A stretch of DNA of 7,410 nt from Chlamydiota bacterium (GCA_038534095.1 JBCAXK010000059.1:1-7410), one strand, 5' to 3'; numbered from the stretch's first letter, positions 1 through 7,410 are shown. Program-made: the numbers.

Positions 1-3000
1 TGAAATTCATTTATCCTCCTTGGGGTTTCCCAAGGAGGATAACAAAATCAATGAAAATTTTGATGCGTCAGTTCTGGTGATTGATCATGAAAGTATTGAC
101 AAATTTCTGAGAAAAAATCAAAATTAATTCCCTAAAATCCCGAGGCATGTGATGCACTTTGATCATGATACAGCAAGTCAACCGCAAATCGTCGAAGTCT
201 TTCATGTGGAGGCAGAAAATAAGAGCAGTAGGAATCCCCATATGCAGGAGCAAAAACCTAATGTAAGCTACACCATTTCCGATCACGATCAGATAGGCAT
301 ATTTTTTCATGATACAAATGCAAAATTAACAAATACTTCCGTTGGTGGGAAGGCAGTTAATATGCAAAAGCTTGGCCAAATAGAAGGTCTTGCTGTTCCC
401 TCATGGTTTGTAATAGCCTCTCAAGTGTTCCAAGAATTTTTAACTGAAAACGGCCTCATGCAGATCATTCATGAACTCGATATGCTATGCCAGAATCCAC
501 AAGAAAACTCTAAATTAATACAATCGCTTGCGGATAAAATACGACTGTTAATAATAGAAAAACCATTAAAAAAAGACTTCTACCTCAAACTAAAAAATGC
601 TTACGGAAAACTGTCCCTATCTGCACTTACAACTCTTCCAAGTTTTGCAGTACGAAGTTCCGGAATCATCGAAGATAGTGCTACATCGTCTTGCGCGGGA
701 TTGTACGATACTCAGCTGCATCAAAAAGGCATCGATCATATTGCGGATGGAATAAAGTCAGTATGGGCATCTTCATTTAATCCTCGTGTTATCCAAGAGC
801 GCATCCGACTGGGATTAAAGCAAACGCAATGTGAAATGGGTGTAATCATTCAAGAACAAGTAAATGCACGTTCTTCCGGGGTTATTTCTACTCTTGTGCT
901 GAGCAACAATTATCCAGGCATCCAAATCAGCGGAAATTATGGAGTTGGGGAGAGTGTAGTAAGCGGAGAAGTATCTGTTGACGGGTGGGTACTGCACCCC
1001 CAAAAGGGGTATATTCTAGAAGAAATTAAGGGAAGCAAGGAGTCTTGTCACCAGCTCTCTTTGCAAGAAGGAGTAGAGAAAGTAGATCTACCTATCTCAA
1101 AAAGGGATGCTTTTGTGCTCAATCAAAGCGAGCTTTCAATCCTATTTGCTCAAGTTCAGACAATTAAAGATTCTTATAACTGTGATGTCGATATTGAATA
1201 TGCAGTGGATCAACGAGGAATTATTTTCATTCTGCAAGCTCGACCCCTTGTAAATGTGCAATTGGATGAAATTCGCGTTGTAGATGTGGAGGACATGAAT
1301 GAACTCAATACAATTGGTAAGGGGCATTTTTCCGTCGCAGGGGTCGCCACAGGGCGCTTAGTGTTCATAGAGTCTTTGGAAGCTCTTGAAACGGGAGAAA
1401 TCGTTCTTCAACCCCAGGATATTGCATTGGCATATATTACCACGAATGTATGGTCTCAATACCTTGGCCATATTAAGGGCTTGGTGACTCGAGAAGGATC
1501 TCCGGCTTCACATCCCATTCTACTAAGCCGTGAAAAACAAATCCCTTGTGTTATTGGAATTGCTGACGATTTTGAGCAATTGATTGCCTATTCAGGTCAA
1601 ATCGTCACAATAGATGGTTTTAACAAGTGTGTCTATGAAGGAGATGTCAAAACAAAATCAGCCAGTCAGGATGACCTGTTAAAGCAGTTCGAGCCTGTGT
1701 CTATACGACAATGGCCTGAACTTGCCGCCTCTCTTCCCCACTTATTGCATAATAAGATGGCGGTTGAATCTGAAGGTCTTTATTGGAGACGTACCCCAAC
1801 TTATCCAGTAGTGGGATTTCAAAGGGAACTGAACCTATTACGTTTTGACTTTGTTCCAATTTTACTCAAGAAACCTGATGTAAAGGTCTCATCTAATGTA
1901 ATCGATGATTATACTTGTTGCGAATTGGCTCCTTTTTCCGAATATGTCGCTTTGTTTGATGGATTCGATACAGACATGGCTTTGGCATTTAATCAAAGTC
2001 ACAAAAATTGCCTTGCAACCTTTCTAGATTGCTCCGCAAAAGCTACGAGAAGTAAGCAAGATTGGCAAGCATATATTGATGCGTATGCTCATTTGCGATC
2101 CTATATATGGCTTGGAGATGCTCTACGATCTTATGCTCAAAGAAAAGTTGAAGAGATTGGTATGGAAATACAGCTCCCTCTTTTCTACCTAGAAGAGTGC
2201 GCCAAAGAAATTCAAGCAACTCTTCCTGAACTCGATACACAAATGCACCAAGAGTTGCGTGCGCTTGCTATGCGATTTCAAAAGGAACCTATCTTTGAAG
2301 ACGTGACTATTTTAGAAAAACATGACCCGGAACTCTATCAATCTGTTGAAGAGCTTGGGAAAAAATATCGATTTGAACACAAGATCTCCTTAGATAAAGA
2401 GTTAGACCTAAATGTAGTTTACAAAAGACTGAAAAGGGAGGTTGAGGCTGTAATTCAGGGGAAATCTCTATCAACAAATAAAGCAACTGATCAAACTCGA
2501 ATCTTTCTCCCAGAAATGGATGAACTGAAAAAATGGCTATATGTGACGATTTGGAACCGTATTCTGCAGTCTGACTCTCATCATCTAGATGCTCGGGCTA
2601 AGGAAATCGTACGTCCTCAACTTTTAAAACTTGGCCAACTACTCACGGAAAAAGGCTCCATAAAGTCTGCTGAGCATATTTTCAATTATTCCATAGAGGA
2701 AATTGGAGGTTTCATAAGGGAGGTTCTATAAAAATGAAGCGAAAAGCTCACGCGTTAAGGCAAGTTCTCTACTCGCCAAAAGTGGATTTTTCCCTTGAAG
2801 CTCACAATGGTATTTCTGCAAAAATTGTGGAGGAAGCAGGTTTTCCTGTGATTTGGGGGTCAGGGCTCACAATTTCATCTTCTCTGGGTCATCGCGATTG
2901 CAATGAGATCTCGTGGACCAATCTTTGCGATCAAGTTGAGTATATGATCGATGGGACTTCTATTCCTCTTCTTCTCGATGGCGATTCTGGATTTGGAAAT

Positions 3001-6000: not shown

Positions 6001-7410
6001 TCCACGATAGTAGAGCTTGCCATCACTTTTATCTATTTTACATAAGGCGCTCTTACAAATGGCTGTGTGATACAGGCCGGGATCATAGATCATTAATTTA
6101 TTGACGGCCTCTTTCAAATGAAGAACAGTATATTCCCCTTCAGCACTTACAGAAAATAAATCATCTAAATCAACATCTTTGATTGCAGTCATAAAATATC
6201 CTTTTACATGTTAATGCGTTACTAAGGTTTCATGTTTCTCAGAGAAATAATTCTCAAGATAACGATGAAATAGCGAGCGCATCTTGGCTGTGTGGGCACC
6301 AGGAAGTCCTGTGCCTACTTTTTTATCGTCTATCTGTACAAGGGGAACGGCATCTTTTACACTCGAACAGAGAAAGGCCTCATCACAAGCTTCGATCTCG
6401 TCTAGATGTAAAGCCCGAAACTCGACGGGGTAGTGCTCTTTAGCTAGCCTAAGCAATATAGTTCTTGTAACACCGTTTACTACTTGATCATCTTTAGCAG
6501 TAATCCATTTTCCGTCTTTAAGAAAAAAAAGATTACTCGTTGTAGCTTCTAAAAGTTCCTGAGAGGAATTAAGGTAAATTGCATCATCCGCTCGAGCCTT
6601 TTCCGCTTTTTTCATCGCTAAAACAGCATGCGTATAGTTTGTAGCTTTTACACAAGGGTAAGTACGGTCCGAATGGAAGGTAACTACGCGCATTCCTTCC
6701 TTATAATACCTCTCCGGATGGGGCTGAAATGGGTGAAATAGCATAACTAATTCTGAATGATTTGCGGGCAAAAGGAACTCTTTCCCACACAACCCACCTG
6801 TAATAAGGAAACGAATTCCCGCATCTATGGGTGGATTTTTATCGATGAGCTGAAGTGTTAACGCTTTGATCTCTCCTATATCCATAGGGAGAGCCAAGTC
6901 AATTTGCTGGGCAGACCATTTTAATCGATCGAGATGATCGTCCAGATGGAATGGTTTCCCTTGATATAATTGGACATAGTCGAACACTCCATATCCTCGG
7001 AGCAATCCAAGGTCAAAAGGACTGAAGACAGCCTCTTGTTCGTTTGCGAAAGCATTATTCAGAAAATGAAAGATCATTTTTTAACTTTTTCCAAATGATT
7101 ACACCACACACTTTCCTTTTTTTCAAGAAATTTAAAATCACAATGTTGTATCCTGTTCAGAAACAGAGAAAAATGAGATATAAGAAGTCATGCGCTTTAG
7201 CTTGGTGGTGTCTATTTTACTATCACTCCATTTGCATGCTTTTGCTTTGTCCCTATCTTCTTCAATCCAAAAGAGCCTTCCGCTTGAAGAGTACGTGGAA
7301 CTGCATCCGTTTCTGCATCTCTCATTTGAACAAGCTAACCAAGCGATTGGCTGTCAACCTTTATTCATTGATGTCTCTCAGCAATTGGTCAATGAAATTT
7401 TTTCCATTTT

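Follow-up and report, generated by a model that had tools for sequence, protein, structure and literature searches.

By what enzyme would a chlamydial cluster that has a PEP mutase and no phosphonopyruvate decarboxylase (Ppd) consume its phosphonopyruvate? The question is raised by the window, which is a whole 7.4-kb contig (C59; positions 1 to 7,410) of an environmental chlamydia (Chlamydiota bacterium) encoding a five-gene phosphonate module; gene calls and Pfam matches place the five genes where an earlier genome survey had put them. An altered citrate synthase probably takes the place of the usual second enzyme of phosphonate synthesis, and we put at roughly 0.55 the probability that acetyl-CoA and phosphonopyruvate are condensed to phosphonomethylmalate on a citrate-synthase fold.

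PEP mutase and metabolic setting

The gene at 2734..3624 (+ strand) encodes a 296-aa protein (Ppm; g01354, P0002) that is, by family assignment, a true PEP mutase, as the survey's finding had stated. It scores 337.4 bits on TIGR02320 (E 5.2e-101), above the cut-off of 319.55, and its best match among solved structures is the PEP mutase 1m1b (E 4.4e-93), while on the phosphonopyruvate hydrolase profile it reaches 195.3 bits, below the cut-off of 374.4. At residue 111 it carries EDKLFPKTNS, an instance of the EDKX5NS motif that section 6 of PMC8942020 gives as Ppm-specific and that is present in 10/10 chlamydial homologs. When the survey of the phylum was repeated, it again returned a strong mutase (E<=2.2e-85) in 10 of 401 Chlamydiota genomes, the next best match having 9.8e-37. 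Chlamydial mutase clusters come in another form too, in which the mutase is paired with an Ldh_2 dehydrogenase.

The genome, which is 96.6% complete, has no match at E<=1e-3 to TIGR03297 (Ppd-like TPP enzyme), in a search whose control was positive in 13/14 reference genomes. Neither aconitase (PF00330) nor Iso_dh (PF00180) has a match in it, nor does HMGL-like (PF00682), and therefore the genome lacks both the known second steps after the mutase and a TCA outlet for citrate. The cluster copy is its sole citrate synthase. Five relatives were tested for a second copy: the aconitase-bearing ones have two citrate synthases each (4/4), and the aconitase-less relative G088 has that of the cluster only. 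In the four relatives with two copies, the second outscores the cluster copy on PF00285 (269-298 vs 234-255 bits). These results support the view that the paralog is distinct from the TCA citrate synthase. They also uphold, by profile searches and, for Ppd, genome-wide, what the survey had claimed about the missing Ppd, aconitase and isocitrate dehydrogenase, the single citrate synthase, and the pair of them in relatives with aconitase.

The citrate-synthase paralog and its Gfo/Idh/MocA-fold partner

The paralog (404 aa, g01356) is encoded at 4978..6192 on the minus strand. It matches PF00285 with E 4e-76 over profile positions 1-356 of 357, and it falls below the cut-offs of all 20 listed curated NCBIfam citrate-synthase models (best NF004126, 243.2 vs 505). 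We read the active-site residues of the seven chlamydial cluster enzymes from an alignment with E. coli GltA, numbered from Met1. The position of H306 is Gln in 7/7, which confirms the survey's claim of a replaced catalytic His and places the replacement on the oxaloacetate side. We take E. coli H306 to be H305 of the mature E. coli enzyme and pig H320, the His at the oxaloacetate carbonyl, and H265 and D363 to be pig His274 and Asp375; the H305/H320 mapping agrees with the offsets to chain 2cts. Passages of PMC8455617 and PMC4524684 name the substituted His among the active-site residues of the pig citrate synthase, and PMC8455617 likewise gives the acetyl-CoA enolisation pair as active-site residues. 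The paralog keeps H227, H230, H265, D313-P314-R315, D363, R388 and R408, and the acetyl-CoA enolisation residues H265 and D363 are invariant in both alignments examined; judged by these residues, it retains the acetyl-CoA machinery. After the Gln lies a 4-residue insert (GFGQRTYNRILNCWDPR), and where relatives show RPRQ or RPQE the paralog has RPCD, with a Cys two residues past R408. Fold, length and H227/H230/H265/R315/D363/R388/R408 are thus shared with ordinary citrate synthases (E. coli GltA, pig heart), whereas the Gln for H306, the insert, the Cys after R408 and the lack of a TCA context set the paralog apart.

Within the phylum, 7/400 genomes have a close homolog of the paralog (E<=2.3e-154), and they are exactly the seven with the mutase cluster; the next match has 2.5e-36. 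The form with Gln and insert adjoins a PEP mutase in 9/9 assessable loci (this genome as G000, six relatives, L071 and L077), whereas around the His-type sister enzymes, which lack the insert, no mutase lies in flanks of up to 10 kb (0/12 loci), although these counts come from related genomes (chlamydiae of five GTDB families and one other MAG against three genera) and overstate independence. The 12 His-type loci are from Photorhabdus, Chitinophaga and Cupriavidus, with the same Gfo-like gene alongside. In a tree from a quick search, the Gln type falls into a single 54-row clade (SH-aLRT 100), which shares a 74-row clade with the His-type sisters (SH-aLRT 99). Gln is present in 52/54 of the former; the two members that carry His count against our reading. 

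The Gfo-like gene (3593..4960, + strand; 455 aa; g01355, P0003) directly follows the mutase gene in all seven clusters and here overlaps it by 32 bases (3593-3624). Its product, a divergent NAD(P) protein, has no Pfam (E<=0.01) or NCBIfam match, and PF01408 is found on 29/70 of its homologs. The predicted structure (pLDDT 92.3) has 466 PDB matches at E<=1e-3 by Foldseek, among them glucose-fructose oxidoreductase 1ofg (E 1.5e-16), and in this model the protein is a two-domain Gfo/Idh/MocA fold with an N-terminal Rossmann domain, with enzymes acting on sugars and cyclitols as its structural neighbours. Its invariant residues include D120-K121-P122, R159, R160, H207, Y221, H222, D225, R311 and H421, of which the three arginines might suit an anionic substrate. 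We found no position that separates the mutase-linked homologs (n=20) from the others (n=8), and 37 positions are invariant in both. Because this partner shows no split matching that of the citrate synthase, it is the latter enzyme whose change goes with the phosphonate context.

The pair itself is an older two-gene module and was not invented for phosphonates. The His-type citrate synthase/Gfo-like/MFS clusters of Photorhabdus, Chitinophaga and Cupriavidus, degenerate in Serratia, resemble the present one in having an exporter gene and a Gfo-like partner (34-40% identity), but their citrate synthase keeps the His and has no insert, and there is neither mutase nor dikinase; they add a three-domain TPP enzyme and a 490-aa nucleotidyltransferase-like protein, and in Photorhabdus also an AMP-binding enzyme. 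Such mutase-free pairs have a function of their own, which we count against our reading.

Dikinase, aminotransferase and export genes

The first gene (152..2731, + strand) encodes an 860-aa protein (g01353); its ORF opens at GTG 149, and the start is likely ATG 152. An ATP-grasp domain (PF01326, PPDK_N, residues 64-369) is followed by a phospho-His swivel domain (PF00391, PEP-utilizers, 421-492) with the His in the motif GSPASH, and by a rare helical C-terminal domain (residues ~505-860). Residues 505-860 match no Pfam family, and a search of 1.84 billion representatives with this domain gave 58 relatives at E<=1e-3; 12/12 full-length relatives tested have PPDK_N and PEP-utilizers ahead of it. 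The survey's description of this architecture stands, although its comparison with PEP synthase is less apt. PEP synthase profiles match up to about residue 507/860, with 213 against a cut-off of 739.75 for TIGR01418 and 240.6 against 598 for PRK06464, and residues 505-860 are modelled as helical, not as the PEP/pyruvate-binding TIM-barrel domain. Scores lie below all NCBIfam cut-offs for PEP synthase, RPH and PigC, and at the sequence level only residues 57-532 match solved structures of PEP synthase or RPH. The model of the C-terminal domain (pLDDT 95.9) aligns best with the domain of RPH that binds rifampin (5hv1_A, chain 327-718; rmsd 5.0 over 297 residues); its Z of 11.2, against 6.9 for the next match, is below the Z of about 13 that helical models need to be safe. 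Foldseek gives E 8e-3 against RPH. With a C-terminal domain that appears akin to the one holding the substrate in rifampin phosphotransferase (RPH), the protein is not a PEP synthase and, on its modelled fold, looks more like a small-molecule dikinase of the rifampin-phosphotransferase/PigC kind. RPH-Lm and the PigC/RedH-type dikinases likewise have ATP-grasp and phospho-His swivel domains, and their helical substrate domain may have its counterpart here, but the putative substrate domain comes last in g01353 whereas that of RPH lies between the other two, the two domains have no sequence match, and the score on NF041857 is 157.4 against a cut-off of 999.

The class IV (fold-type IV) aminotransferase (6211..7077, - strand; 288 aa, g01357; PF01063, 3.4e-48) is an extra paralog, the other copy on contig C29 being 34% identical. 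Its nearest solved chains are 7p8o and 7p7x, 'Aminotransferase class IV' (E 1e-41), followed by BCATs and D-amino-acid transaminases. Homologs of at least 49% identity occur in 10 genomes, four of which have neither cluster nor mutase and show the gene among housekeeping neighbours; the subfamily is not cluster-specific.

All nine mutase-bearing relatives were fetched and examined. Dikinase, mutase and Gfo-like genes are contiguous, with the citrate synthase nearby, in 6/9; these six cluster-bearing relatives have the aminotransferase in 5/6 and an adjoining ABC_tran/ABC2_membrane_6 exporter in 6/6, in line with the conservation claimed by the survey. In this genome the exporter (ABC_tran and two ABC-2 membrane proteins) lies on contig C70 at 808-3222, and the survey had placed it next to the module by analogy with relatives. 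We obtained direct evidence for that link: at the end of the window, 7190..7410 (+ strand) holds the 5' part of a gene cut by the contig end (ORF 7190-7408, 73 codons, 3' end open, signal-peptide-like start), and tblastn with a 332-aa protein of relative G308 aligned its residues 1-68 to C59:7187-7405 and residues 113-332 to C70:128-720. A single gene, begun on C59 and continued on C70, joins the two contigs. Its protein has no Pfam match at E<=1; an Atlas lead to PF03171 clusters (score 0.93-0.95) suggests that it may be 2OG-Fe(II)-oxygenase-like. The evidence tips modestly towards C59 being the biosynthetic half, and C70 the export half, of a phosphonopyruvate-decarboxylase-independent phosphonate cluster. 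The survey's interpretation is partly supported: it holds as to a Ppd-less, exporter-linked cluster, and needs amending as to the citrate synthase/Gfo-like pairs that exist without a mutase.

Proposed pathway and its alternatives

In the pathway that we favour, the PEP mutase would form phosphonopyruvate, which would replace oxaloacetate in a condensation with acetyl-CoA on the paralog to give 2-phosphonomethylmalate; thioester hydrolysis would pull the unfavourable mutase equilibrium. The acceptor site would have been refitted for a phosphonate, with the carbonyl-polarising His exchanged for Gln and the adjacent loop lengthened by four residues, while the enolisation residues were kept. For a PF00285 enzyme using phosphonopyruvate, as the survey had proposed, there are now three indirect lines of support: the 9/9 against 0/12 loci, the single Gln clade and the unsplit Gfo-like partner. 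Tailoring of the product or a co-substrate may fall to the Gfo/Idh/MocA-fold protein and the aminotransferase, joined in this genome by the possible 2OG-oxygenase-like protein. It counts against our reading that phosphonomethylmalate is a tertiary alcohol and no aconitase-type isomerase is present: it would offer no obvious substrate to dehydrogenase or aminotransferase, whose roles therefore do not follow from the model. By its family and fold, the dikinase would O-phosphorylate a small molecule from ATP via its phospho-His domain, for activation or self-protection, and the linked ABC-2 system presumably exports the product. A bolder version, rather doubtful and offered tentatively, is that the recruited His-to-Gln citrate synthase makes a phosphonate analogue of citrate, 2-phosphonomethylmalate or a derivative, which the permuted dikinase phosphorylates and the ABC-2 system exports to act on host or competitor enzymes of citrate or aconitase type. 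Phosphorylation might then be, equally tentatively, self-protection or a leaving-group step, and the makers would be intracellular chlamydiae and a few other bacteria.

The FrbC, Psf2 (Pfs2) and HvrC routes to FR-900098, Pseudomonas fosfomycin and pantaphos run, as is proposed here, from a PEP mutase to an aldol-type condensation with acetyl-CoA without Ppd. These enzymes are homocitrate-synthase homologs of the HMGL-like family PF00682, to which PF00285 is unrelated, so the paralog may work like them but is not a member of their group. Their pathways continue via aconitase/IPM-isomerase-like and dehydrogenase steps, or PsfC; this genome differs in having neither aconitase nor Iso_dh. According to PMC8942020, the reaction of acetyl-CoA with phosphonopyruvate is a verified one in the case of FrbC and Pfs2, and phosphonate clusters repeatedly contain homologs of TCA enzymes. 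If our reading is true, the paralog would open a new way into phosphonate chemistry. If the bolder version is true as well, the paralog would rank as the first enzyme of PF00285 with a part in C-P chemistry and add a fifth way of consuming phosphonopyruvate, and the pathway would be the first natural-product pathway worked out for the phylum Chlamydiota.

As a point against our reading, a transaminase or a reductase might take phosphonopyruvate just as well. Phosphonopyruvate might instead be committed by the aminotransferase, in a PalB-type conversion to D-/L-phosphonoalanine, with the citrate synthase supplying a separate acid such as citrate. In the tally of PMC8942020, PnAla formation ranks second among the predicted fates of phosphonopyruvate, with 9.2% of neighbourhoods. 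An aminotransferase is present in 7/7 clusters (class IV in six, PF00155, the PalB family, in G149), and D-amino-acid transaminases are among the nearest solved relatives. Transamination offers little thermodynamic pull, however, and at least 49% identical homologs stand in 4/10 genomes without a mutase among housekeeping neighbours; the enzyme is also missing at the non-chlamydial locus L077 (contig only 6 kb), and a citrate-synthase acceptor site changed only where a mutase is present is left without an account. We consider this route unlikely. A VlpB-like pull, in which the Gfo-like protein reduces phosphonopyruvate to phosphonolactate, the dikinase phosphorylates the 2-hydroxyl and the citrate synthase acts elsewhere, appears distinctly unlikely, although several facts favour it: reduction by NAD(P)H pulls well, dikinases of this family transfer phosphate to hydroxyl or enol oxygens, the Gfo-like gene comes after the mutase gene in 7/7 clusters and here shares 32 bases with it, and the mutase/Ldh_2 cluster type implies that phosphonopyruvate reduction seems to occur in the phylum. 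Against it, the Gfo-like protein stands with the same 37 invariant residues beside His-type citrate synthases without a mutase, and a 45% identical homolog lies alone among housekeeping genes (L076), so that its substrate is unlikely to be phosphonate-specific; its structural neighbours work on sugars or cyclitols.

That the paralog still makes citrate from oxaloacetate, tolerating the Gln and being merely syntenic or feeding the product, seems very unlikely to us. All oxaloacetate-binding arginines and the acetyl-CoA residues are kept, the PF00285 match is strong (E 4e-76), and citrate is a common building block; yet the aconitase and IDH that would use citrate are absent from the genome, relatives with the TCA branch hold a separate ordinary citrate synthase, the Gln-and-insert form occurs only with a mutase among assessable loci (9/9), and the paralog scores below every curated citrate-synthase cut-off. 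The replaced His is, moreover, a named active-site residue in those accounts of the pig enzyme (PMC8455617, PMC4524684). Hardly credible is a catabolic cluster in which an imported phosphonate is transaminated to phosphonopyruvate and then cleaved by a mutase-family hydrolase: PalB/PalA-type degradation, as outlined in PMC8942020, does pair an aminotransferase with a mutase-superfamily member, and P0002 has a 195-bit match to phosphonopyruvate hydrolase as well, but it clears the cut-off for the mutase and not that for the hydrolase (195.3 vs 374.4) and has the EDKX5NS motif, the transporter is of ABC-2 type with no binding protein seen, and citrate synthase and dikinase would be left without a role.

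A PepM phosphonate cluster in chlamydiae as such is already reported: Dharamshi et al. 2022 (PMC9666466) describe PepM-containing clusters in the sponge-associated chlamydial MAGs S1_42 and S4.2_81. The passages on the cluster compare it with fosfomycin clusters and offer fosfomycin as a guess, without settling on a product; they do not discuss the absence of Ppd, nor the citrate-synthase paralog, dikinase and exporter. A record labelled as isolate P_S1_42 (L090) carries the cluster type described here.

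Gene content of the cluster and its exporter

The window comprises all 7,410 bases of contig C59, from a 1.6 Mb genome of 96.6% completeness, and carries five full genes together with the 5' part of a sixth. Gene 1 (152–2731, + strand) encodes a dikinase in which a PPDK_N ATP-grasp domain and a PEP-utilizers phospho-His domain are followed by 350 residues without a Pfam match, and it scores far under all curated cut-offs for PEP synthase, rifampin phosphotransferase (RPH) and PigC. Gene 2 (2734–3624, + strand) encodes a PEP mutase that passes the TIGR02320 cut-off (337.4 versus 319.55), scores under the phosphonopyruvate hydrolase cut-off and matches the solved PEP mutase 1m1b with an E of 4.4e-93; it carries EDKX5NS, which is used as a Ppm-specific motif in PMC8942020. 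The Gfo-like protein of gene 3 (3593–4960, + strand) has no family-model match, PF01408 being found on 29 of 70 homologs, and its predicted structure (pLDDT 92.3) matches glucose-fructose oxidoreductase and other Gfo/Idh/MocA enzymes. On the minus strand lie gene 4 (4978–6192), a citrate-synthase paralog with a full-length PF00285 match that scores under all curated citrate-synthase cut-offs, and gene 5 (6211–7077), a class IV aminotransferase by family match. The survey's finding had described five genes of these families, and the family searches, the mutase cut-off and the motif confirm that description.

Promoter and terminator scans of the window gave 12 and 4 hits versus 16.2 and 6.0 expected from shuffles, i.e. 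at or below expectation. Contigs assembled from three RNA-library runs of one study, with DNA carry-over possible, covered 29, 25 and 25 of the 30 window bins; most were 95–99% alike to the window sequence, and each run had 3 to 4 at 90–95%. A DNA run of an independent study yielded a 97% alike contig over window positions 92–7069 with unlike sequence beyond both ends, so that the flanks of the five-gene block differ in that strain.

The sixth gene is split between contigs. Its 5' part (7190–7408, + strand) has an ATG start and a signal-peptide-like N-terminus, and the last 221 bases of C59 correspond to the first 73 residues of its protein. A 332-residue homolog from the relative G308 aligns through residues 1–68 to C59:7187–7405 and through residues 113–332 to C70:128–720, C70 being the contig of the same genome that holds the exporter; downstream on C70 are three exporter genes, 49–60% identical to those of G308 and in the same order. 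Since the split gene matches both ends and the exporter order is shared with G308, the sequences support joining C59 to C70, with about 45 codons of the split gene missing in between; the two contig ends share no overlap. The exporter had been assigned to C70 by a link drawn from relatives, for which the split gene provides direct support. The longest open frame in this region (ORF 7044–7409, + strand, TTG start, 122 aa) was rejected as the wrong frame, as homology supports 7190–7408. The G308 homolog has no Pfam match even at E≤1, and the Atlas gave a weak lead from the split gene to 2OG-Fe(II) oxygenase clusters. Bases 3–247 of C70 contain an inverted duplication, with one protein segment at 140–3 (minus) and 128–247 (plus), which looks like a contig-end assembly artefact.

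Relatives of the C-terminal domain of the dikinase are few: an exhaustive search of 1.84 billion representatives gave 58 at E≤1e-3 (a word-index search returned only 18 close ones), and the domain follows PPDK_N and PEP-utilizers in 12 of 12 full-length relatives tested. RPH was the only clear match to its structural model (pLDDT 95.9), with a Foldseek E of 8e-3 and a VIA-align Z of 11.2 over 297 residues, the next match having Z 6.9 and helical models needing about Z 13. The matched part of the RPH chain, residues 327–718, is presumably the rifampin-binding domain. The modeled domain therefore likely shares the fold of the RPH substrate domain, although the domain order in gene 1 is permuted relative to RPH, and we interpret gene 1 as a water dikinase predicted to O-phosphorylate a small molecule. 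It had been called PEP-synthase-like with a rare C-terminal domain; the rarity stands, while the cut-offs and the likely RPH-like fold argue against a PEP synthase.

Active site and distribution of the citrate-synthase paralog

We aligned the paralog and six chlamydial orthologs with E. coli GltA (annotated K-12 record). H227, H230, H265, D313-P314-R315, D363, R388 and R408 (E. coli, Met1 numbering) are kept in the paralog and the orthologs; H306 (Met1) is Gln in 7 of 7 chlamydial cluster enzymes, and a four-residue insert follows this Gln (GFGQRTYNRILNCWDPR versus GFGHRVYKNYDPR). We take mature E. coli H264, H305 and D362 to be pig His274, His320 and Asp375, and the query-to-2cts offsets are consistent with this mapping, the pig sequence itself not being in the alignment. 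These three are active-site residues of pig citrate synthase (PMC8455617, PMC4524684). On the GltA alignment and this mapping, the residues acting on acetyl-CoA are intact and the His acting on the oxaloacetate carbonyl is replaced. A doubt whether the substituted His is the catalytic one was dropped after the alignment and the 2cts offsets, which confirm the earlier claim of a catalytic His replaced by Gln.

Six-frame family searches of the own genome found no Ppd-like TPP enzyme (Ppd, phosphonopyruvate decarboxylase), no HMGL-like enzyme of the FrbC kind, no aconitase and no isocitrate dehydrogenase; the control for each search was positive in either 13 or all of the 14 reference genomes. 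The paralog is the only citrate synthase of the genome. The survey's finding on the lacking Ppd is thus borne out genome-wide, as are the missing aconitase and isocitrate dehydrogenase and the single citrate synthase.

Strong mutase matches (E≤2.2e-85) occurred in 10 of 401 sampled Chlamydiota genomes, the next match being at 9.8e-37, and all nine relatives were fetched for comparison. Six of the nine have the window arrangement, that is, a dikinase-mutase-Gfo-like row with the paralog adjoining or within about 7 kb, in keeping with the conserved module reported before. An ABC_tran + ABC2_membrane_6 exporter is present in all six and the class IV aminotransferase in five; in the sixth (G149) a PF00155 aminotransferase takes its place in the cluster. 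Of 400 genomes, 7 have close homologs of the paralog (E≤2.3e-154), and these are the same seven that carry the cluster; the next-best match in the phylum, at 2.5e-36, is a prpC-like gene adjoining a prpB-like gene. Among five relatives tested, the four with aconitase all have a second citrate synthase with a higher PF00285 score, as claimed earlier for such relatives, and in the fifth, which lacks aconitase, the cluster enzyme is the only citrate synthase. This pattern and the phylum distribution argue that the paralog is an addition to the TCA enzyme and not a form of it.

Some of these clusters carry further genes. In three of the six relatives (G088, G027 and G056; loci L034, L035 and L036), genes for a GT92-like glycosyltransferase and an FAD_binding_4/ALO oxidase separate the Gfo-like gene from the citrate synthase, a hint that the product might be glycosylated or take a surface-bound form; the sole GT92 match in the own genome is weak (C47, 29% identity). 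In G334, genes for pyruvate dehydrogenase E1 alpha, E1 beta and E2 directly adjoin the cluster (L032, 13250–16586), a possible local source of acetyl-CoA.

The citrate synthase/Gfo-like pair outside phosphonate clusters

The Gfo-like family was confirmed at 214 loci of the genome collection, and among the best 80 of these 214 an adjacent citrate-synthase homolog was present in 20 and a mutase in 7. In twelve loci (L078–L088, L091; flanks up to 10 kb per side), 4 from Chitinophaga, 6 from Photorhabdus and 2 from Cupriavidus, the gene immediately upstream of the Gfo-like gene is the citrate synthase, and neither mutase nor dikinase is present. In the three annotated loci, one per genus, an MFS exporter follows the pair; a three-domain TPP enzyme is encoded in Chitinophaga and Cupriavidus but reduced to a 100-aa fragment in Photorhabdus, a 490-residue nucleotidyltransferase-like protein is common to Photorhabdus and Cupriavidus, and Photorhabdus also has an AMP-binding enzyme. 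We found no description of the Photorhabdus/Chitinophaga cluster in literature titles and abstracts. Serratia (L089) carries a decayed copy of the pair cluster.

All twelve mutase-free enzymes keep the His and lack the insert (His-type). The window and the six relatives have the form with Gln and insert (Gln-type), as do the loci L071, L077 (a MAG labelled cyanobacterial) and L100. Of these, the 9 loci whose contig extends far enough all include a mutase, L100 ending inside the Gfo-like gene; the genomes are related, so these counts overstate independence. Across 74 database homologs (E≤1e-60) the two types stand cleanly apart by identity to the query. In a quick maximum-likelihood tree, the Gln-type enzymes form one clade of 54 rows (SH-aLRT 100), two members of which have His with the insert kept, nested in a 74-row clade (SH-aLRT 99) whose deeper branches are His-type enzymes; outside it fall E. 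coli GltA, the second chlamydial enzymes and prpC-like enzymes. The citrate synthase/Gfo-like pair is older than the phosphonate cluster. The signature GFGQRTYN-x-I-x3-W-DPR with RPCD offers a simple, testable marker, and the His-type sisters a natural control pair for specificity studies. A metagenome scan with citrate-synthase patterns returned at least 80 loci at 29–35% identity, far below the cluster clade, the patterns being too general to bear on the link between Gln-type and mutase.

When 20 Gfo-like proteins of Gln-type clusters were compared with 8 of His-type clusters, grouped by shared contig or locus, no position strictly separated the groups, and relaxed thresholds gave only residues 209 and 345. 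Thirty-seven positions, including K121, R159, R160, H207, Y221, H222, D225, R311 and H421, are invariant in both, suggesting that the Gfo-like protein recognises something the two kinds of cluster share. Where there is a mutase, it is the citrate synthase that has changed, and of the indirect arguments that the paralog handles the mutase product, this contrast with its unchanged partner is the strongest.

The Gfo-like family itself was also seen elsewhere. A 45% identical homolog (L076, 1222–2562) has no citrate synthase or mutase in 12.5 kb and neighbours an inositol monophosphatase family gene, FolD and RNase R, and the family thus has a role outside the clusters. A distant homolog (27% identity) in an Oscillospiraceae MAG (L119, 4342–17087) is clustered with an ATP-grasp enzyme, a thioesterase, BtrH_N, NUDIX, radical SAM and AMP-binding proteins, and an exporter of the chlamydial type (ABC_tran + two ABC2_membrane_6). 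The Atlas structural clusters closest to gene 3 are NUDIX-Gfo fusions of Saccharimonadota (TM 0.88), and NUDIX genes lie near Gfo-like genes in L119, L142 and L034, a lead towards a nucleotide-linked substrate.

Consumption of phosphonopyruvate

Phosphonate pathways all need a pull on the unfavourable PEP mutase reaction. Four enzyme types are described as acting on phosphonopyruvate, namely Ppd, the HMGL-type FrbC (PF00682), the PF00155 aminotransferase PalB and the dehydrogenase VlpB, and aconitase, IDH, MDH and fumarase occur as TCA-like enzymes in phosphonate clusters; in the accessible passages of the same source, 'citrate synthase' refers only to the reaction type of FrbC (PMC8942020). 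Literature titles and abstracts, with subscription journals outside coverage, contained neither a PF00285 enzyme in a phosphonopyruvate pathway nor this enzyme choice in chlamydiae. For sponge-associated chlamydial MAGs, a PepM cluster is already in the literature, with a comparison to fosfomycin clusters but, in the text available, no analysis of its other genes (PMC9666466). The cluster kind is accordingly known, and the novelty here lies in the second step, for which this phosphonate cluster has a non-homologous candidate.

On the directly observed gene families, motifs, absences, linkage and distribution we place a model in which the paralog would condense phosphonopyruvate with acetyl-CoA to phosphonomethylmalate on a citrate-synthase fold, and this condensation would pull the mutase reaction as FrbC and Pfs2, both HMGL-type phosphonomethylmalate synthases, do (PMC8942020). 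We rate this step slightly better than even (about 0.55). With a tertiary alcohol in phosphonomethylmalate and no isomerase to act on it, the model leaves the Gfo-like protein and the aminotransferase without a defined role. Speculatively, the dikinase may activate the tertiary hydroxyl for a subsequent elimination, the possible oxygenase may hydroxylate, or the Gfo-like protein, whose structural neighbours act on sugars and whose Atlas neighbours include NUDIX fusions, may tailor a separate sugar- or nucleotide-linked moiety.

Other enzymes of the cluster could instead be the first to act on phosphonopyruvate. Prior transamination appears unlikely. The aminotransferase of gene 5 has its nearest solved chains among 'Aminotransferase class IV' entries, then branched-chain and D-amino-acid transaminases, and homologs occur in 137 of 401 genomes, including a second, more ordinary copy in the own genome (C29). 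Its subgroup (≥49% identity) spans ten genomes, six with the cluster, but the other four have no mutase and keep the gene among housekeeping neighbours. The aminotransferase is a usual, not exclusive, cluster member, which lowers its odds of being the committed step. Prior reduction by the Gfo-like protein is slightly less probable again, and this rival is weakened by the lack of any position that strictly separates the Gfo-like proteins of Gln-type and His-type clusters. Plain citrate synthesis by the paralog seems improbable to us, and a catabolic role for the cluster would be quite surprising.

If the condensation holds, the citrate-synthase fold would be a further, non-homologous solution for consuming phosphonopyruvate, and genome-mining rules keyed to the Ppd, FrbC, PalB and VlpB families would miss it. 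The cluster would also give obligate intracellular chlamydiae a putatively exported small molecule, bearing on their dealings with hosts or competitors.

The three remaining relatives (G002, G115 and G356; loci L037, L038 and L039) have a second kind of mutase cluster without a citrate synthase, whose mutases are 48–51% identical and keep EDKX5NS. The mutase is paired with an Ldh_2 dehydrogenase and a PhyH dioxygenase in G002 and G115, a SAM_HAT_N protein is present in G002 and G356, an ABC-2 exporter in G002, and a B12-binding radical SAM enzyme with a split dikinase homolog in G356. These clusters suggest a phosphonolactate-type route.
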